The notes under the pieces are model-generated. The model had not been told where the DNA came from. It worked only from the letters and a program-made list of their open reading frames with translations, and searched no databases. This document shows, one piece after another, positions 3,830-40,524 of a DNA stretch of 64,000 bases; position 1 is the stretch's first letter, and each line of letters opens with the position of its first letter. Location: the NCBI GenBank assembly GCA_000165345.1, contig CM000433.1:864001-928000 (forward strand), given 5' to 3'. A program made the position numbers and the translations under genes.

Positions 3830-5694
3830 TTAATTCATTGAATAATGATTAATTAGTTGAGGAAATACTCTGTTATCTAATGTCTTGACATTATTTAGTT
3901 CCACAAGTATACTTATATGTCTAGAATTATCTATTCTTGGAGTTATTGTAATATAACCCGATACACCTCCAACAACTTTAAGAAGTTGATCGTCAGGAGA
4001 CTTAATATGCAATATTGTCTGCTTCCAATGTGTTGGTTCGTGAAATGGAGAAGTTTCCATATCAACTTTTTTGAATTGAGAATAAAATTCTGCATTGAAT
4101 GAAACAACTAAAGAAGTAAAGAATGAAAATTCATCTGAAAGCTCTATTTTAAAAGGTTGTCTTAAATTTGATAATTCTTGACTTGTAATATCTAAAATAG
4201 GTAAACTTGGAAGATCATATACATTTTTACAACGTAATCTTTCTACTGGAACAATCTCAACATATGGAGTTGATAATAGTACTGATAATTTTGGAGATAT
4301 CTCCGAAAGATCCAAATTATAAAGTCTATTATTATTCCAAGGACTTACTAAACTGTCGATAGAATCAGAATAATCTGCCAGCGAAATTTGTAATCTAACA
4401 GAAGAAGGAAAAATATGACCAGAAAATTTCCCATCATTAATCTTTAAATATCTATTTCTAGCGTCTAATATGGTATATAACATACTTTCATATAATAAAC
4501 AATATCCCATCCATTCTGAAATTATTATATCACATTTAAATGGTACTGAATCTTTTGGAGGTAGATCATTCTTTGAAATTGAAATCACTTTATTTTCTAC
4601 AATAAATAAACTTAAATCTTCAAACTTTCCACATATAAAATGAATTTTATTCCCTAAATTATTAGCTTGAGCAATTTTTTCTGCTATTTTAATGGTATCT
4701 TTTGCAGCATCAACAGCAACTACCATTTTGGCTCCACTTTTTACTGCAAATAAACTAAGAATACCAGTACCAGTACCAACATCTAGTACAATTTTATCTT
4801 TAAATAAATTAATTGAATTATTTGGATCAGTAATAAAGTTATAATAAGCATCTGTTCTGACTTTATCCAAAATCATTTCTCTATGAATATCTAAAGTAGA
4901 ATAAGAGCTAAAGTAAGGAGTATCTTCATTCTTAATTTTATTTTTAATAATAGCATCAATGTCATTCAGTTCTTTATCAAGCTTTGGTTTTAATGTTTCA
5001 GATTCTTTTTCTGATAAATCTAATAGTTTTTTTGAAAGCTCATGTGGAGAAACTGTTATTGAAGTACTCTGCTCAGAAGCAGTAGATATTCTACTACATG
5101 GGGATGGATATGGATCTTTTTTAGAATCAAATTCCAATGACTCTTTATTTTGAAATTCTGATATCAAATCTGCCATAAACTTAATTTTTTGTTTTAATAA
5201 TTTGTTTTCTTCTTCAATAGAAAGTTCGCAAATAACATTTGGATTTCTCTCTTCTTCTTGGATATATTCTTCGTTAAGAGTATCTAATTCTAAAATCAAT
5301 CTATCATCATTCAAAATTGGAGTTAATAGTGAGTCATCGTTCCATATTTTACCATCCTTTTTAATATGTTCATACTCTTTCTTAGGATCTAATCCATTAT
5401 TGGCACATTTCCTTAAGTAATTAATCAATCTAATTTGATCATATTCTTCCTTTCCATCAGTTTCTTTAGAAAAGTCAAATTCATGTTGTATTTTCATATG
5501 ATTCCAAATTTCTTCAGTCAAATTTGAGCTGGAATCACAAAATAAACACTTTGCTTCTGAAAGAGATTCAAATTCTTGTAGATATGAATTATACTCTAAT
5601 AGTTCAACATCATCTTCGCTAATCTGTTCATCATCACTAGTATTAATGTCATTTATAATAATTGAAACTTTCTCTTGATTATATTTTCCTGACA
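3830..5694 (-). CDS. PRMT3: Protein arginine N-methyltransferase 3-like (N-terminal C2H2 zinc finger plus a class I SAM methyltransferase core)
   Basis: Zn-finger AKCLFCDSSSNLTEEIWNHMKIQHEFDF matches the PRMT3 finger CLFCDRLFTSAEETFSHCKLEHQFNI. The methyltransferase motif I reads VLDVGTGTGILSLFAVKSGAKMVVAVD, and the post-I and THW-like regions read CDIIISEWMGYCLLYESMLYTILDARNRYL. The ORF track opens at 5818 but the first 40 residues look non-coding. I place the start at the ATG at 5694 (MSGKYNQEKV...), which is uncertain. Confidence 0.8.
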
Positions 5695-6004
5695 TATTTA
5701 TAAATTTACTGCCAACAATATATAACTTTGAAATAAAAGTAATTGTTCTTTTAAACCAACTTAAATCATATAATATATAATCTAACTTTTTATTTAACGA
5801 GCTTATTTCCAAAAACAATAGATTAATTTATAGTTGTATTAATAGTGTAAATACTGCTTCTATTGCTAATAATACGTTCACAAGTCTAATTATTAATATT
5901 CTACTGTTCTTTTCTCTCCTCGTTCAATTTCTTGTTTTCTTGATTTTTTTCTTCTCTCCACTAAATAATGTCAAAATATTACAATATTTCATCTGCATTT
6001 CCCA

Positions 6005-8092: not shown

Positions 8093-8126
8093 ATACCGGC
8101 ATTGGCGCCAGAATTAGCCCGCCGGA
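8093..8126. promoter_or_regulatory. ATACCGGCAT + TTGGCGCCA + GCCCGCCGG composite in the divergent CHMP6/CTNNBL1 promoter
   Basis: cgATACCGGCATTGGCGCCAgaattaGCCCGCCGGaatatg. Confidence 0.5.
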
Positions 8127-12712: not shown

Positions 12713-14044
12713 ATGCCAAGAGAAGTCAGCATATACAAAAGTCCTATAAAGACTTTGAATCTTGCATTGCTATTTTGCTATGAAGTAGTATGTAAAATAA
12801 TTGTGGAATTGTTTACAAAATGGTATAAACACATTTTGATATTATTTGGAATTACTTTGACAATAATGGGATTAAGTAATTTAAATGAAAAATTAGGAGA
12901 GCTAATTCATAATTACATTTACGTTAATATTTTGAATGGAATTTGGTGGATTGGATTGGGGTTTTTGAGTTCAGTAGGACTTGGTTGCGGCATTCATACT
13001 GGATTATTGTTTTTATTTCCTCATGTTTATTCAATAATTACTACAGCTGAAAGATATAACACATTGAATTTTGACCCAAGGCAAAATATGTGGAGTAATT
13101 TATTGAACCCAGGAGATTTATTTATAGTAAATGATTTAGGTTCAGATGGATCATCAATCAGTCTATTTAACATATTATTAAAGATTCTCCCATATGCATT
13201 TTTATGGGGTTTTGGTACGGCTTTAGGAGAGTTACCCCCATATGCAGCAGCATATGCAGCTTCAAAATCTAGAAAAAATAATAGATTAAGAGAGTTAAAA
13301 AGGAGAAAAGAAAATGAAGAATTTGAAGTACAAAACTCTTCAAGTATTGAAAATATTGGGAATGAAGGTTTTGAAATTAATAAGGAGTTACTTCCTGATG
13401 ATGAAAGTACTGAAGATACAAATAATGACTCAAGTATTAAACATTACTTGATGAGTTTAATAAAGAAGTGTATAGTCACATTGATTAATAAGTTTGGTGG
13501 ATATGGAGTCTTTATTTTAAGTTGTTGGCCAAATTTAATGTTTGATTTATGTGGAATCATATGTGGCCATTATTTAATGAATTTTTGGACTTTCTTTATT
13601 CCACTAGTTCTTGGTAAAGGTATAATAAAGGTTTTCTTTCAGACTTTATTATTAATATTCTTATTTTCAAGTAAATTTGAAAATAAGCATGTTGATATTA
13701 TTCTTTGGTTTATTAAAAAATGGCCAATTTCTAAATTTTTTGATAAAGATGAAATTTACCTTAAAGAAACAATTCATAACGAGTTAATTTATATAAAAAA
13801 GACTTTAAGTAATATGAATGAGCAATCTGGAGATCCTATTTCATCATTGAATTCCAATAATATTAGTAAAATAAATAATAACAATTGGTGGGAAGTCATT
13901 ATAAGTAAAATCCAAATTACTTCCTTATTTTCATGGATTACTATTTTTGTTGTTGTTTTATTTGCAATCTCTATCATTAATGAGGCAGCAAAATATCAAG
14001 ATGAAGCCATCAGAAATAAGGAGAACAAAGTTAAAAAGGACTAA
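12713..14044 (+). CDS. VMP1: Vacuole membrane protein 1 (VMP1/TMEM49, DedA-superfamily ER scramblase-like)
   Basis: Multi-pass membrane protein. [23 protein letters not shown] matches VMP1 [58 protein letters not shown] matches VMP1 [36 protein letters not shown]. Confidence 0.85.
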   Translation: [443 protein letters not shown]

Positions 14045-14695
14045 AATTTATGGATAACTTTTCATTTTGGATTATTTAGTTTCATTTCTTTTACAATTAT
14101 TGATCTCAGATTATGCGATTGTTCATAATTGATTATAACGCACAAAATTAGGCTCAAAAACTGAGGTTATTAAATATATTTTCTATTTTTAGTATCAATT
14201 CAGATTTTAATTTTAATTATTTAAAAGAGATCACTATTTTTTTAGAAGAGTATACTTGGAAATACATTATATTTCACTTATATACTATTTTTCAAAAGGG
14301 GGAATGTAATAAATTTAATAGTTTGCTTCTCCTTGGAATTACTTTATATTTAACTAATCACTACTTTTTTTTTTGATTTTCAAATTATAATGGGATAATA
14401 TTCATCAAATTCTTTTTTCCTTCGAAGTATTTTCATAAGCCATATTTTACATTATACACAGGGTTTGACAAGGCACTTTGTTTCGAGATTAACCTTGTAT
14501 TATAGTTAAAGAAATTATCTAAAAAAAGAAATTTGAATTCATCCTAGTCACTTTTATATATAAATAGAAGAATTATTCAATCTAATTAAAATGTTTAAAT
14601 TATTTTACGTATTATGCAATTTCCGCCCCACATAATTCTTATCAATTTCTATGATTTTTTTTTTTAAAGTTTACCATTATTCTTTAAAAGGAATA

Positions 14696-14720
14696 TGGCG
14701 CCTAAAATAGCAGGCGGGCC
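14696..14720. promoter_or_regulatory. E2F-like pair TGGCGCC N10 GGCGGGCC in the 2.4-kb region upstream of the Aly/REF-like gene
   Basis: aataTGGCGCCtaaaatagcaGGCGGGCCctgc. Confidence 0.45.
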
Positions 14721-16519
14721 CTGCATTTGACTTAAAGAGCGAAGACAGATATTTCCAGTAATTAGTGGGAATAATAATTAAAAACGTGGTAGTTTTAGAA
14801 GAGAAAATCGAGTATTTTCTTTTTATAGATCGAGTGTTGCATTATATATGTACATATATATATTATATTAAGAGAGAGAGACTATTTTATTAGGTTTCTT
14901 ATTGACTGGAATAAAAATAGAGCTAGATAATTACTACTGGACTGCGTACTTTTATTTTTTATACTATTTTTAAAGTATTTAGCAGAGTAAATTGAATTTT
15001 GTTGCAGATTTAAAGGGTGGAAAATCATTAATATTAAAAGCTATTAAGAACAAGTTTGAGGGATTTGTTTTTTTATTGAAAATAATAAATTATATTTGGA
15101 TATATATATATTTCTTCAGAATAGAATAATTTAACCACTTGTTAGTATATAAAGAAAAGAATAACTTGAAGTGAATTTTGTTATTTTTTTCTTATATAGT
15201 TGTATTTGGCTGGTTTTTTCCTGTATTTTCTTAAAAAGTCTACATTTTTGGAAAAGTTGAGACCAAATTGTTCAAATACTTTAAGAGTTTGTATTAGAAC
15301 AGATATATCGAATATAAATATTTTAAACAATGGCAAAATCTTACTCAACTAAATCTAAAGGAAGAGGTTCGTTGAAATTTGAAATACTCATCTTACGTTT
15401 GTTTCCTTCTTTTTTAAGAAATTCTTGTAATTGCAGTTAATTGGTTGGCTACATTATAGATTTTTTTTTTGTTTCTGGAATATATTAGAGATATTTCAAC
15501 GGAAAGAATTCGATTGACTTTTGGTGGCTTTTGTTTTCATCCTCTTTCTTTGCATTTTATTTTTCTTTTGAACTTATCCAATGAAATGTGATATTTCAAA
15601 TATTTTACCCTCTATTATTTTGGTCTCTTTCTCACTCTAGCTCAATATGGGAGATATCATTAATAAAGTGTAAAGTATTCTGGAATCATTGGAACGCTTG
15701 GGTGGTTGAATTAGAAGTTTGGGATTTGCAGGAAATTGTTAATGAAATCATTGACTTGCCGTATAAATTATGGGATGCGTTTATTCAGACAACCAAGTGG
15801 GATATATAAAATTAATAAAATAAACGTGATTATTTACTATCCTCACATTTTCTATACTCTAATTCATGTTATTGTTGATCTTTTGTATTTTAAATAAGAT
15901 CATTTACAGCTATCAGCAGAGAGTCATCTTTCTTTCCACTAACGCATTTTTCTCTTTCAATTCTACTATGAAGTGGAAAAAAAATGCTATTTAAAATTGG
16001 AATTCATAGTTTTTGGTAGGGCATATTGAATATATTTAATCCATTCAAATCAAAAAGAAAAAAAATTGGCATTTTTAAGCTATACATGCATTGGCGATAT
16101 GATAGTTTTTCTATTACGTCATTCATGTATTTTGAATACCGGTATTTGTGTGCAAAGTTGTGGGGATTTGGCACGATTTTTTTTTTTTTTCATTTGGTTT
16201 AATTTTGGGTATTATATTTTAATATTTTTCATTCTTTTAGGCTTGAATGAAATTATATTACGAATTATGGATTAAAGTAATTTAATACTACTCTTTAATT
16301 GGGGATATTAATGGAAATGATTTAAGTCAATTCAATCGTATTTCTTATTCCTATTTGCGAACAATTCCACAGTTATGTATACTATTAATGTAGTTTAATG
16401 GAGCCATACTAAATTAATATTTATTGCAATTCTAGAAAAAAAGAAGAAAGCAAAACGTGCAATGTGTATATATACAAGTATCATTAACTGACTTTTTTTT
16501 TTTTTTTTGAACATTATAG

Positions 16520-17332
16520 GTCAATCTCGCACTAATTCAAACTCTACAAGACGTATTGTCAGACTTGGTAACACAAATTTATCAAATTCGAGAAATACTT
16601 TGAACTCCGCAAATGGTAGCTCAAAGTCTAGAGTGATTAGAGGCCAAGGCGGTAGGAGAGTCAATACCAGCTTTGATAATCTCAATAGAAGGAAATTAGC
16701 ATCTTCCAGAAACTCCACTAATAGAGGCTCTTCACTTTCTAACAATGCAAGAAACAGAAAGGGAAGCATTGGGCGCTTTAATTCTTCTGGAAATTCAGGT
16801 GCCATTAGAAGAGGAGGTAGTGGTAGTGGAGGTAGGGGAAGAGGATTTAGAGGTAGGAACAGTGGTTCTAGAACATCATCTAGAGGAAGAGGAGGCGCAT
16901 CTGGAGGATTTAGAGGAACTAGACGCCCCCAGAAGAATAAAAACAGTACAAGCACAGCGTCATTGGTAAGTTATTTTTTTCTTTGAAGAAGTTCTATGGA
17001 ATTCCACATCCATTTTTTTTTTAATGGACTGGTTATAGCGCATGGCGCCAAATGTGGGATTACGGAATACAATTTCTCAACTATATTAACTTTTCACAAT
17101 TTCTTCCCCCTTCAAAAAAAAAAAAACTATATATATTATTTTTGATTTTTTTTCTAATAAACAGGATGCAGCATTAGACTCGTATATGGGAGCAGATGTT
17201 TGCAAGGCACGATTAGATTCACAATTAGATTCATACTTTTCTGGACAAAGTACTGGAAATGATAGCATGGTAACCGGCGACTCTTCGATGAATGTGGAGA
17301 GTAATCAGGAGCCAGTTTTGATCTCACTATAG
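16520..17332 (+). CDS. Aly/REF-like RGG-box mRNA-export adaptor, 3-prime part only: join(16520..16965,17165..17332). The 5-prime exon or exons are not resolved.
   Basis: ORF 16507..16986 is RGG/RS-rich (GGSGSGGRGRGFRGRNSGSRTSSRGRGGASGGFRGTRRP). It opens at a TTG directly after an acceptor, (T)17 gaacattatag ending 16519. A GTAAGT donor sits at 16966 and acceptor aataaacag ends 17164. That gives an in-frame last exon DAALDSYMGADVCKARLDSQLDSYFSGQSTGNDSMVTGDSSMNVESNQEPVLISL ending in TAG. The C-terminal tail LDxxLDSY (present twice) resembles the UAP56-binding C-box of ALYREF (LDAQLDAYNARMDTS). An RRM should lie in undetected upstream exons within 14045..16506. Confidence 0.5.
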
Positions 17333-27387: not shown

Positions 27388-27454
27388 TTACGTGTACATT
27401 TTATACCGGCATTTCATTAAATGACGTAATAATTATTTTCTTATTTTGACATGT
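27388..27454. promoter_or_regulatory. Composite element TTACGTGTA ... ATACCGGCATTT-N4-AAATGACGTAA ... ACTCCGGTAT in the divergent helicase/27544 promoter
   Basis: tattacgtgtacattttATACCGGCATTTcattAAATGACGTAAtaatt...atgtaACTCCGGTATtaatt. Confidence 0.5.
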
Positions 27455-38418: not shown

Positions 38419-40524
38419 TTGATGAATGCTACTTTATTTTTTTTAATATTATTTTTAGTTTATGCAAAGTCACAAAAGCCTATTAAAAACGAAATCGAAC
38501 TACGAGAAAATGAAAACATAAAGATACCCGTATTTCTTGATAATTTCAGTAATAAGTTGGGATTGGATTTGGTTATAGGAAAAAAAACTGTTCGATTGGT
38601 TATTGATACATTGAATGAAGGAATTCGACTATTTCAAGATGGTACAGAAGCTTGCAATAAAGGCAAGTTAAGTTACTCATTTAGAAGTGGAACCGGGTTT
38701 GAAGACGATAGTGAAATTAGTAGGATTGGGAAATCTCAATCGAATAATGATAGTTGTTATGATCCGCTTTCATCAGACTCAGCTTCTTGGTGTTATAATA
38801 AGGATCACTGCAGAATTAGTTATTATATGGATTCTTATACATGTGAAAAGAAAAAGGAATTTCCAGATACTAGAGAAAATGGGATTTTTAATGCTTTTTT
38901 TCATTCAAATGAAAGGGTTTATGATGGTATAAGTAAATTTGAAGTAATGCTAGAAGGAAATGAGCTTGTGATAATTCCATGGATGGTTCCAGAATTGGTT
39001 TTACAAGAATTTCCAATTAAACTTATAAAGAGTGATTTATCTACAGGAAATGGAGAAAATTGGCCATCTTTTCACAATTTTGATGGATTTATTGGTCTAG
39101 TAGGTAAGTTAATTTTTTTCTATTATTTAGAGTGGGAAACAGGTTCAAGATTATCTTATTTGAAATTGAATCACATTTTTATTGCTTTGTCTTTAATTTA
39201 TCAACTTTACTATTTATGATGATTTCCCTTAATTTTACCATCTTTCGGGTCTGAATTAAGATGTGTTGATATTATGGGATATACTGAAATAGTTAAGGAT
39301 TTATTACTTTAATGTAATTGATAATATATAATCAAGACATTTCAATTTATTATCTTCTTGAACTTAATAATCCCAAAAAAATTTCTCTAAATCGTTAATT
39401 CAATATTTGTTAACTTTGATATTATTTAATTCTTAGGTTCATCAATGTCATGCAGAGGTATATCTATTTGGAATGATATATTAATGTTATATAACGCATC
39501 AAGAGTTTATTTTGATGTAAATTTTGAAAATCCAAATTCATCTTTTCTTTATTTAAATAACTTACCAGAATATTGGGATCCTATCTCAATTTATTGGAGC
39601 GAGCCAAAACAATCTGGATTTGTTTATGATGATGCTCTAAGTCTATTTCAAATCTACAATTTTGAGATATGTGGTTCAAACATTATGGAAAATATCTCTT
39701 CAAATTGGCTTGCTGCTTTGGACTTATCATCAACTTGTTTATCTTTACCTCCCTTTTTATTCGCAAGATTAATGTCATGGTTACCTTTGGATTGTCCCGA
39801 ATATAGTATTAATAATGATAAACTCGAGCTTGATAAATCAAAGGAAAATTATTCACAAAATAATGAATTACTTCCATATTCATCTTTATGCATTGTTAAA
39901 AAGAAGCCTCTCCCTGTTATATCTTTTTGGTTAAGTCAAACTGATTCAAATGATGGTAAAGTTGAGCCTATAAAGATCTTTTTGGATGATTATATTATTC
40001 ATTTTAATAATATTGACTATCTATGTGTAATTAATTCAACACTAGGTACTTTTGGAAAAATTAATTACATACCTTACAGTGAAGGTAATAGTTATAACTA
40101 CTTTACTCCTTATTATTCATCCTCTAATACTCCTTTGATACTCCTTGGTTCTCTTTTTCTCAAATCATATGGTATTGTAATTGATAACAACTCAGGAAAA
40201 GTTGGATTTTATCCAAAATATAAATACAAGGGTTATAATTCTAACACTATTGAACACTCTGTGAATTCAAACTGTGCTCCTAAAAAAGAGTGTCTATTAG
40301 AAAATGGATTTAAATATGATTCATCTATTAATGAATGCATCCCTCCAAATTGCTCAGACTGGCTCCTTTACGAGTTTAATACTGAAACTAATACATGTGA
40401 GCTAAACTCAATATTTCCTCTCGTTCTCGCATTTATAATCGTTCTATTTACTTTCTTTGAAATACATATAATGTACCTAAAACAATATATTCTTGACAGA
40501 TCTAGTGAAATTTCTAATTCATGA
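38419..40524 (+). CDS. Pepsin-like (A1 family) aspartyl-protease homologue with degenerate catalytic motifs and a C-terminal transmembrane anchor. Two exons: join(38419..39103,39437..40524).
   Basis: ORFs 38419..39219 and 39445..40524 join through a GTAAGT donor at 39104 and acceptor tcttag ending 39436, in phase 1 (...FDGFIGLVG-SSMSCRGI...). Signal peptide MMNATLFFLILFLVYAKS. The N-lobe LGLDLVIGKKTVRLVIDTLNEGIRLFQDGTEAC aligns with pepsin [32 protein letters not shown], but D-T-G is D-T-L. The C-lobe NWLAALDLSSTCLSLPP aligns with AIVDTGTSLLTGP, but D-T-G is D-L-S. The C-terminal A1 hallmark ILLGSLFLKSYGIVIDNNSGKVGFYPK parallels [24 protein letters not shown]. A TM helix IFPLVLAFIIVLFTFFEIHIMYL lies near the C-terminus. 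Confidence 0.75.

Follow-up and report, generated by a model that had tools for sequence, protein, structure and literature searches.

A CHTOP/FOP-type gene without an RRM in Cryptosporidium parvum, with a long conserved first intron and a putative ATG-poor leader

Proteins of the CHTOP/FOP type bind the helicase UAP56/DDX39B and NXF1 within TREX, and their RG region is methylated by PRMT1. In both ALYREF and CHTOP the contact with UAP56/DDX39B is made by a motif of the LDxxLDxY type. Human CHTOP is autoregulated through retention of its intron 2 with NMD, the retained intron having a conserved 5′ part and an early stop (PMC5175361); no orthologue of CHTOP is known in yeast, worm or fly (PMC5175361). 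The yeast gene YRA1 contains an intron in an intron-poor genome, and this intron carries modular autoregulation elements (PMC2864733). A survey of mRNA export in apicomplexans found UAP56, including that of Cryptosporidium (Table S1), and no Aly/REF, while CHTOP was not tabulated (PMC5785795). The published introns of C. parvum have a median length of 61 nt and a mean of 82 nt (SD 73 nt), and 84% of them start with GTAAGT (PMC2483917). The most over-represented upstream motifs of this organism include the E2F-like motif 3, DTTGSCGCCH, and motif 4, TTTGGCGGGAAV (PMC3734150), and E2F motifs mark open chromatin at transcript 5′ ends (bioRxiv 10.1101/2025.01.17.633476).

The window analysed here is a stretch of 64,000 nt of Cryptosporidium parvum chromosome 4 (contig CM000433.1, positions 864,001 to 928,000, assembly GCA_000165345.1), and all features described below lie on its forward strand. 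The initial annotation had reported that the segment 14045–16506, upstream of an Aly/REF-like gene, contains no ORF of at least 75 aa, and this holds: the longest ORF started by ATG, GTG or TTG has 73 aa (15588–15809), and the longest stop-to-stop open segment has 81 aa, shuffled sequences giving 72 ± 14. The 2.4 kb can be divided into a spacer of about 650 nt, an E2F-like module that presumably acts as promoter, a probable leader of about 590 nt, 37 nt of exon 1 and an intron of 1153 nt. With moderate confidence we read the interval as one ordinary, yet elaborately controlled protein-coding gene, whose product is an RRM-less protein of the CHTOP/FOP type that would serve as an export co-adaptor and whose intron 1 would be subject to feedback. 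The gene model is already annotated publicly; the conserved regulatory layout is unusual for a compact genome.

The coding part of exon 1 (15330–15366, 37 bases) consists of MAKSYSTKSKGR and the first base of a Gly codon, and is followed by the donor GTTCGT. Exon 2 (16520–16965), delimited by translation and cross-species conservation, has no in-frame ATG and codes for an Arg/Gly/Ser/Asn-rich segment with RGG/RG repeats; the acceptor AG is at 16518–16519, and the first two bases of the exon complete a codon. Exon 3 (17165–17332) codes for the duplicated LDxxLDxY(M/F) motif, apart from its initial L, which is supplied by the final codon of exon 2, and for an acidic/polar tail, and it ends with the stop codon. 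The three segments joined give an uninterrupted ORF of 216 aa. The incoming phase 2 at acceptor 16519 and the need for an upstream coding exon are thus both borne out by the exon at 15330–15366, which had been proposed as a speculative first exon and proved to be real from the ORF, from the start of the public gene call and from its conservation in ten genomes.

The public C. parvum gene call (L001, 12618–14620) corresponds to 15330–17332 of the window, has 216 residues, and agrees with the three-exon model in span and length. Since an exact look-up of the spliced 216-aa protein gave no match in the protein collection, its identity with the deposited product is taken from span and length. Complete ORFs were obtained from the same three-exon structure in 10 Cryptosporidium genomes, the phase of exon 1 and its donor being conserved in all ten, and the annotated gene spans of C. 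hominis, C. canis and C. andersoni are consistent with it. The N-terminus encoded by exon 1 is found also in the annotated protein of C. andersoni and in the intron-free contig L009, where the exon 1 part is contiguous with the RG-rich part. The public models of five species are without this first exon and need correction.

Upstream of the coding region, the intergenic spacer (14045–14695) follows a gene identified as VMP1-like, which ends with a stop codon at 14042–14044 and whose protein has exact matches on C. parvum chromosomes; the spacer presumably contains the 3′UTR of that gene. The frequency of ATG is normal in this part (8 observed in 14045–14738, 11.3 expected), and conservation is at its lowest, with 32–70% identity to chipmunk genotype I at 14275–14700. 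The spacer is followed by an E2F-like module (14696–14720) formed by (T)GGCGCC at 14696–14702 and GGCGGG(CC), GGCGGGCC, at 14713–14720. The positions given to this pair in the initial annotation, and its description as promoter-type, were both right: the cores of the published motifs 3 and 4 (PMC3734150) are matched by GGCGCC at 14697 and GGCGGG at 14713, and both hexamers are unchanged across seven species. Counts in the window are 10 for GGCGCC (0.25 expected) and 13 for GGCGGG (0.58 expected). From its position the module would be the promoter of the FoP-type gene. It differs from the published E2F-like motifs in that some 630 nt, including a long leader, separate it from the start codon, and in having another copy within intron 2; binding of E2F/DP is putative.

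Immediately downstream there is a box at 14739–14766, GCGAAGACAGATA then CCAGTAATT, which forms the 5′ edge of an ATG-poor segment. A 13-mer of this box is invariant in seven species, and in C. ryanae and C. bovis a GAAGAC(A/G)GAT...CCAGTAATC box is found at −678/−695 relative to the start codon. Within the window the box is specific to this gene, and it is probably the 5′ end of the mRNA or the TSS region. The segment 14739–15329, 591 nt that end just before the start codon, contains one ATG, 13.7 being expected. Neither the opposite strand nor the adjoining sequence shares this depletion: the antisense count of CAT is near expectation (4 found, 6.5 expected), as is that of ATG in the spacer and in intron 1. 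It recurs in the other species, with 0–3 ATG for 8.7–15.3 expected, and in contig L009, with none in 640 nt for 11.7 expected. This repeated sense-strand depletion points to a long 5′UTR, of about 590 nt, that starts just 3′ of the invariant GGCGCC/GGCGGG pair and is nearly free of upstream ATG. Its first 300 nt are 80–96% identical to chipmunk genotype I, which is the level of the coding sequence. An intron within the leader, starting from a conserved CCA|GTAATT, was rejected, since the candidate acceptor is unconserved and the ATG depletion spans the whole leader. A candidate long-range helix joining the two best-conserved boxes of the leader (14737–14751/15052–15068) was paired to 97% in register and showed one compensatory change; it was not significant in the shuffle control (107/500).

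Intron 1 (15367–16519) measures 1153 nt, about 14 times the published mean intron length, and its length is 612–1193 nt across the ten species. Besides the donor GTTCGT it has a poly-T tract, an acceptor TATAG and a branch-like sequence, TTAACTGAC, at 16486–16494, which from its position and sequence is the likely branch point. The donor is non-consensus in all ten species, being GTTCGT in eight and GTTTGT in two. If the intron is retained, a stop codon follows after 17–42 codons in every species.

Four conserved stretches could be distinguished in intron 1. The first, at its start (15367–15450; GTTCGTTGAA ... CTTACGTTTGTTTCC ... TTGTAATTGCAGTTAATTGG), shows a mean identity of 69–90% over five non-parvum species, above that of exon 2, and folding revealed neither a conserved nor a stable RNA structure in it; the boundary between exon 1 and the intron, folded as a single sequence, was likewise without significant structure (z = +0.97). 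The second is a mid-intron block (15490–15790) with elements such as AAT(G/T)CGATTGACTTTTGGTGGC and AATATTTTACCCTCTATTATTTTGGTCTCTT, with as much as 98% identity to chipmunk genotype I and with cores conserved in 5–6 species. It gave no Pfam or Rfam match and no convincing consensus structure. The conserved 73-aa ORF at 15588–15809 was rejected as coding, having no Pfam match and interspecies indels of 1, 4 and 8 nt, by which a conserved reading frame is excluded. The third is a composite promoter-type module (16114–16160) of the form TTACGTCAT - N13 - ATACCGGTAT - TTGTGTGCA, conserved in six of seven species, with ACGTCAT at 16116–16122 and ATACCGGTAT at 16136–16145; the end of the composite had been placed correctly at 16145, and its start is at 16116 instead of 16124, 8 nt from the position first given. 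The fourth, in the 3′ part (16338–16494), was delimited in a seven-species alignment and includes TTCAATCGTATTTCT, AATGGAGCCATA, TTGCAAT, GCAAAACGT and the branch-like sequence, again with no consensus RNA structure. RNAalifold applied to four conserved blocks gave no significant structure and almost no covariation.

Intron 2 (16966–17164) has 199 nt and a consensus donor, GTAAGT, found in nine of the ten species. A conserved E2F-like and G-box-like sequence, ATGGCGCCAAATGTGGGA, lies within it at 17042–17059.

What autoregulatory retention requires at the level of sequence is present and conserved: the intron is long, its donor is weak, its 5′ segment is conserved and a stop follows early. By analogy with human CHTOP and with yeast YRA1 and its long intron, the gene may be autoregulated through intron retention, the level of the protein being set by negative feedback on the removal of intron 1. 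Given a donor that is both weak and conserved, and conserved linear sequence directly 3′ of it, splicing could be blocked by the protein in excess, or by a partner; translation of the intron-retaining RNA would then end after 17–42 codons, and this RNA would be unproductive or degraded. The likeness to CHTOP is that an early coding exon precedes a long intron whose 5′ part is conserved and in which an in-frame stop comes soon. The differences are that the retained-intron candidate is intron 1 here and intron 2 in man, and that autoregulation is a proposal in C. parvum. That no conserved RNA structure was detected in intron 1 counts against the feedback.

A module resembling a DNA promoter element is among the conserved intronic blocks, and it suits control of transcription, or a promoter of internal or antisense type, no less well than feedback at the level of RNA. 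It is conceivable, if rather unlikely, that the long intron and the leader are conserved for regulatory elements acting on DNA, with no splicing feedback, and that the TTACGTCAT/ATACCGGTAT module and that of intron 2 are intragenic enhancers, or promoters of internal or antisense non-coding transcripts modulating the gene. In keeping with this, the E2F-like hexamers and the ATACCGG-type palindrome are strongly enriched in the window (ATACCGGTAT with at most one mismatch occurs 10 times, 0.71 being expected), the ATACCGG-type sites lie mainly at the promoter sides of ORFs, the same composite is present at 27403–27429 in a divergent intergenic promoter region, and the intronic copies are conserved. 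Antisense lncRNAs are moreover reported as common in C. parvum (PMC7840661), but the lncRNA sequences listed from that source include no match to this locus; nor is the locus among the polycistron examples named in the text of bioRxiv 2025.01.17.633476. The conserved non-consensus donor, and the conserved sequence directly after it, would be left unexplained by control on DNA. Such control and splicing feedback are compatible, and both may be true.

It is improbable that intron 1 is kept as the host of a small non-coding RNA, be it a snoRNA or a member of the class termed 'intronic is-ncRNAs'. PMC9465071 gives 23 intronic ncRNAs in C. parvum and suggests that they perhaps preserve introns, and the high identity of block 15490–15790 to chipmunk genotype I would suit such a host. 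However, nothing was found in the interval with Rfam at gathering and E-value thresholds, the best E-value being 4.9; the C-box sequence TGATGA is absent from both strands of intron 1; neither the Rfam covariance models nor the C-box search indicated a C/D or H/ACA snoRNA; and consensus folding of the conserved blocks gave weak structures in which covariation was almost absent.

We return to the favoured reading, a CHTOP/FOP-type gene whose first intron may be under feedback, and to its protein. The 216-aa product (248 aa in human CHTOP) begins with a short basic segment, followed by an RG/RGG-rich middle and, in its C-terminal part, a duplicated LDxxLDxY(M/F) motif. Residues 111–189 match Pfam PF13865, FoP_duplication, over profile positions 2–80 of 81 (E 9.3e-15; 55.5 bits, gathering cut-off 24.6), and no other Pfam match was obtained for the protein at E up to 1. 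The duplicated LDxxLDSY motif noted earlier thus survives profile comparison; its copies read LDAALDSY and LDSQLDSY, and LDAALDSYM and LDSQLDSYF are 8 residues apart. Within the genus, LDAALD.YMG....CKARLDSQLD.YFS is nearly invariant. A profile search returned 84 relatives, and FoP_duplication is present in all 43 of those with at least 130 aa, of which one has an RRM and 42 are RRM-less. Orthologues are named 'Chromatin target of PRMT1 protein-like' in the sources.

Two alternatives had been offered for the missing RRM, and the one that stands is an RRM-less Aly/Chtop-like adaptor, FoP_duplication being the single domain recognised. That small hidden exons in 14045–16519 code for an RRM and make the protein a true ALYREF orthologue, as the general expectation of an RRM between two RGG regions in Aly/REF proteins would have it, is effectively refuted by a six-frame Pfam scan of this interval, which found neither an RRM nor any other domain at E up to 10, by the completeness of the three-exon model and its conservation in ten species, by the same RRM-less architecture in the intron-free contig L009, and by the lack of an RRM in 42 of the 43 nearest relatives.

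Because the LDxxLDxY(M/F) motif is duplicated and an RRM is absent, the protein is placed with the CHTOP/FOP type, and the likeness to ALYREF stated in the initial annotation has to be corrected in this sense. With CHTOP, also called FOP or SRAG, it shares small size, a central RG-rich region, the absence of an RRM or any other globular domain, and the C-terminal duplicated LDxxLDxYM of FoP_duplication. Apart from the RG region and the C-terminal motif, however, no similarity to CHTOP is detectable, and the N-terminal intron-binding domain of the human protein is not recognisable in the C. parvum protein. With ALYREF/THOC4/Yra1 it has in common RGG-rich regions, a C-terminal LDxxLDxY motif of the UAP56/Sub2-binding type, and membership of the same Pfam family, but the central RRM flanked by RGG regions is lacking, in the intron-free homologue as well, and like CHTOP it carries the C-terminal motif in two copies. 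An N-terminal UBM could not be recognised, and the conserved N-terminal sequence, M(A/V)(K/R)S(Y/F)..(K/R)..G, bears no obvious resemblance to the UAP56-binding motif at the N-terminus of ALYREF. Since CHTOP has no known orthologue in yeast, worm or fly (PMC5175361), orthology over such a distance is uncertain.

By analogy with these proteins, the product may act as a UAP56-binding, arginine-methylated co-adaptor of mRNA export. As the apicomplexan survey found UAP56 and no Aly/REF (PMC5785795), a conserved FoP/Chtop-type protein is an obvious adaptor candidate. It is tempting to speculate, though we hold this only tentatively, that it is the 'missing' UAP56-binding export adaptor and that its gene carries an ancient, genus-wide autoregulatory circuit, the parts of which would be the very long first intron with its weak donor, linear elements with an ACGT core near the donor, in mid-intron and near the branch site, and the AUG-free leader of 600 nt. 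If this is true, intron-retention feedback on TREX adaptors, as in YRA1 and CHTOP, would be a rule, either conserved from deep ancestry or evolved several times, that holds even in a parasite with almost no introns. A long intron and a probable AUG-purged leader of about 590 nt, both conserved in the genus, occur here in one of the most compact eukaryotic genomes, and the gene offers a tractable case of post-transcriptional control in an organism group, Cryptosporidium, for which uORFs and regulated splicing have scarcely been described (PMC12246861).

A sequence search of the PDB matched the low-complexity RG region to a mitoribosomal protein, and the match was discarded as meaningless. Separately, it was observed that a PRMT-type gene lies about 10 kb away within the window.

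The gene lying after the VMP1-like gene on the forward strand (15330-17332) was resolved into three coding exons. The coding part of exon 1 (15330-15366, 37 nt), which the initial annotation had put forward as a speculative candidate, contributes an ATG, twelve codons and the one base that exon 2 lacks. It is followed by intron 1 (15367-16519, 1153 nt, ending in TATAG), by exon 2 (16520-16965), which opens with the two bases that complete a codon, contains no in-frame ATG and is succeeded by GTAAGT, by intron 2 (16966-17164) and by exon 3 (17165-17332). Translation of the joined model, a spliced CDS of 651 nt, gives 216 aa. In each of the three C. parvum assemblies the public gene call has exactly the same end points and 216 residues, and the C. 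hominis call agrees likewise in span and length; to judge from these, the three-exon product is presumably the deposited C. parvum product. Since the gene model and the family label are already in public annotation, the core points of the initial annotation were confirmed and are not new. The stretch 14045-16506, described there as free of ORFs of at least 75 aa, indeed has a longest conventional ORF of 73 aa; its longest stop-to-stop open stretch is 81 aa, compared with 72 +/- 14 in shuffles of the same composition.

The orthologous locus was located in nine further genomes (C. hominis, chipmunk genotype I, C. ubiquitum, one Logan assembly, C. canis, C. felis, C. ryanae, C. bovis and C. andersoni), so that ten Cryptosporidium genomes were compared in all. 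All nine possess a short first exon encoding M(A/V/I/D)(K/R)(S/Y)(Y/F)..., which ends at the first base of a codon before GTTCGT or GTTTGT. After this come a long intron, the exon rich in RG, another intron and the exon that carries the motif, the ORF being complete. In the annotation of C. andersoni and of C. canis the protein already begins with exon 1. This exon is missing from the public models of chipmunk genotype I (5001-5575 of the compared sequence L008), C. felis (L006, 5001-5793), C. ryanae (L007, 5001-5970), C. ubiquitum (L011, 9620-10501) and C. bovis (L014, 9019-10006), which begin inside intron 1 or at its end, that of chipmunk genotype I also omitting exon 3. The Logan SRR29752142 contig (L009; 1535 nt, ~50% G+C) encodes the whole protein, a 208-aa homologue, uninterrupted and intron-free. 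Across both exon junctions its sequence is the same as the spliced C. parvum model; it thus behaves like cDNA and is probably a transcript. Its source is a GC-richer relative, the protein aligning best with the C. bovis/C. ryanae type.

The sole Pfam match of the 216-aa protein was FoP_duplication ('C-terminal duplication domain of Friend of PRMT1'; E 9.3e-15), in keeping with the RRM-less Aly/Chtop-like adaptor that had been considered. The other option, RRM exons hidden upstream, was dismissed because the six translations of 14045-16519 gave no match to an RRM or any other Pfam family at E up to 10. A profile built from Cryptosporidium and gregarine homologues yielded only 84 proteins, mostly of 50-260 aa, from 1.84 billion representatives; FoP_duplication was found in all 43 relatives of at least 130 aa and an RRM in one of them. 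The C. felis and C. andersoni orthologues are named 'Chromatin target of PRMT1 protein(-like)' by their sources. The motif occurs as LDAALDSYM, 8 residues and LDSQLDSYF. In CHTOP an LDxxLDxY-type motif is likewise duplicated; ALYREF has a single C-terminal copy and is defined by its RRM, which the Cryptosporidium protein lacks. The duplication and the absence of an RRM therefore make the protein CHTOP/FOP-like; the likeness to Aly/REF proposed at the outset holds for the motif family and fails at the RRM. A review of mRNA export in apicomplexans reports UAP56, but no Aly/REF, for Cryptosporidium and does not list CHTOP in its tables (PMC5785795). By family membership, the protein may be an export co-adaptor that binds UAP56. 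A PRMT-type arginine methyltransferase gene (3830-5818, minus strand; 621-aa product with the Pfam families PrmA, Methyltransf_25 and PRMT_C) lies ~10 kb from this 'Friend of PRMT1'-type gene, probably by coincidence.

The promoter-type motifs reported upstream of the gene were recovered, TGGCGCC at 14696-14702 and GGCGGGCC at 14713-14720. In the window GGCGCC occurs 10 times (0.25 expected), GGCGGG 13 times (0.58 expected) and ATACCGGTAT with at most one mismatch 10 times (0.71 expected); these are not chance events. The two hexamers form the cores of the E2F-like motifs 3 and 4, which of all C. parvum upstream motifs are the most over-represented (PMC3734150); open chromatin at the 5' ends of transcripts is marked by E2F motifs (bioRxiv 10.1101/2025.01.17.633476). 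In a seven-species alignment both hexamers upstream of the gene are invariant, and ~20 nt downstream of them stands an invariant 13-mer, GCGAAGACAGATA, followed by CCAGTAATT. Starting at the invariant box (14739), the 591 nt before the start codon contain one ATG (at 14848) against 13.7 expected, while the antisense triplet CAT (4 against 6.5) and ATG in the upstream spacer (8 against 11.3) and in intron 1 (20 against 22.7) are near expectation. The depletion recurs in every species, with 0-3 ATG against 8.7-15.3 expected in the seven box-bearing ones and ATG-poor zones of 200-690 nt in C. ryanae, C. bovis and C. andersoni; the upstream 640 nt of L009 have none against 11.7 expected. In C. ryanae and C. 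bovis the box GAAGAC(A/G)GAT...CCAGTAATC, at -678 and -695, is situated at the edge of the ATG-poor zone. Over its first 300 nt the leader is 80-96% identical to chipmunk genotype I, on a par with coding sequence. Selection against upstream AUGs is expected of the 5'UTR of a translated mRNA, which points to a putative transcription start near 14720-14740 and a leader of ~590 nt. Past the spacer, the ORF-free 2.4 kb would be made up of a putative promoter at the hexamers, this leader, the coding part of exon 1 and intron 1.

The ATG-free run 14849-15329 (481 nt) is the second longest on the plus strand of the window. The longest (887-1561, 675 nt) ends at another motif pair, GGCGCC at 1564 and GGCGGG at 1589, ~650 nt upstream of the ORF starting at 2221; that arrangement differs from the leader in that the motifs come after the ATG-free run. 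The two most conserved leader boxes, 14737-14751 (GAGCGAAGACAGAT) and 15052-15068 (TTTG(A/T)GGGATTTGTT), can pair. Pairing reaches 97% in register and 21-51% when they are slid; C. canis has a single compensatory change, and the comparison with shuffles was not significant.

A set of 213 C. parvum introns has a median of 61 nt and a mean of 82 nt (SD 73), and 84% start with GTAAGT (PMC2483917); from a later annotation of 1370 introns, together 1.29% of the genome (PMC9465071), and a genome of ~9.1 Mb (PMC12246861), a mean of ~86 nt was computed. Intron 1 measures 612-1193 nt in all ten species, and its donor is GTTCGT in eight and GTTTGT in two; the donor of intron 2 is GTAAGT in nine of the ten. 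The first ~80 nt of intron 1 are conserved above exon 2, and the block ~15490-15790 reaches 98% identity to chipmunk genotype I. Within a further conserved block (16114-16160), TTACGTCAT-N13-ATACCGGTAT-TTGTGTGCA, both parts of the composite element were found, ACGTCAT at 16116-16122 and ATACCGGTAT at 16136-16145, the start first assigned to it being 8 nt too high. TTCAATCGTATTTCT, AATGGAGCCATA and GCAAAACGT are conserved upstream of a branch-like site, TTAACTGAC, and three ACGT-core elements hold their relative positions ~29 nt past the donor, mid-intron and ~65 nt before the acceptor. The blocks are non-coding, since indels break the frame and Pfam finds nothing in them; they gave no Rfam match, no C box and no conserved fold.

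Negative feedback on intron 1 splicing is the preferred reading of this arrangement. The donor is weak and is held so by selection, conserved linear sequence adjoins it downstream, and the intron is very long and soon meets a stop; if the intron were retained, translation would end after 17-42 codons in every species. These are sequence prerequisites, from which we infer retention and feedback. In human CHTOP, binding of the protein to exon 2 and to the conserved 5' portion of the 1641-nt second intron is accompanied by retention of that intron and degradation of the RNA by NMD (PMC5175361); the arrangement proposed here is the same, in intron 1 instead of intron 2. It would also echo the yeast YRA1 intron, whose modular elements serve autoregulated export and decay of the pre-mRNA (PMC2864733). 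As far as the literature searches reached, the long AUG-free leader and the long weak-donor intron 1 with conserved blocks, both genus-wide, and the protein as a candidate Aly-substitute adaptor seem to be unreported.

The main alternative is control at the DNA level, in which the modules might serve as enhancers within the gene or as promoters for internal or antisense RNAs. The intron 1 composite is found again between two divergent ORFs (27403-27429), most ATACCGG-type sites are on the promoter sides of ORFs, and the intron 2 module ATGGCGCC(A/T)AA.TGTGGG is conserved in the C. parvum clade. At 17042-17059 in intron 2, ATGGCGCCAAATGTGGGA combines an E2F-like and a G-box-like motif, is conserved in C. 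parvum, C. hominis, chipmunk genotype I, C. ubiquitum and the Logan genome L013, and could be an antisense or internal promoter. Such control is compatible with splicing feedback.

The ATACCGG(T/C)AT-type palindrome stands on the promoter sides of ORFs at 8093, 27403, 33738, 40731, 52652 and 63427, and also at 16136, often adjoining E2F-like hexamers or TTACGTCAT. The 2013 survey of C. parvum motifs (PMC3734150) mentions none of CCGG, ACGTCA and TGACGT in its text, and the palindrome may be an undescribed promoter motif.

The window is AT-rich (21-33% G+C per kb), and its coordinates equal those of the public C. parvum record L001 plus 2712. The upstream neighbour ORF (12713-14044, 443 aa) is present as exact sequence on three megabase NCBI records, CP044418.1, CP029784.1 and CP141122.1, across which the gene neighbourhood is identical; its closest non-identical match is the C. 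hominis 'vacuole membrane protein' (98% identity), followed by other Cryptosporidium species. By these matches the window is most probably chromosome 4 of C. parvum. A SNORD96-family C/D box snoRNA (39210-39292, plus strand; 68.6 bits, gathering score 43) overlaps the ORF 38419-39219 at the 3' end of the latter.
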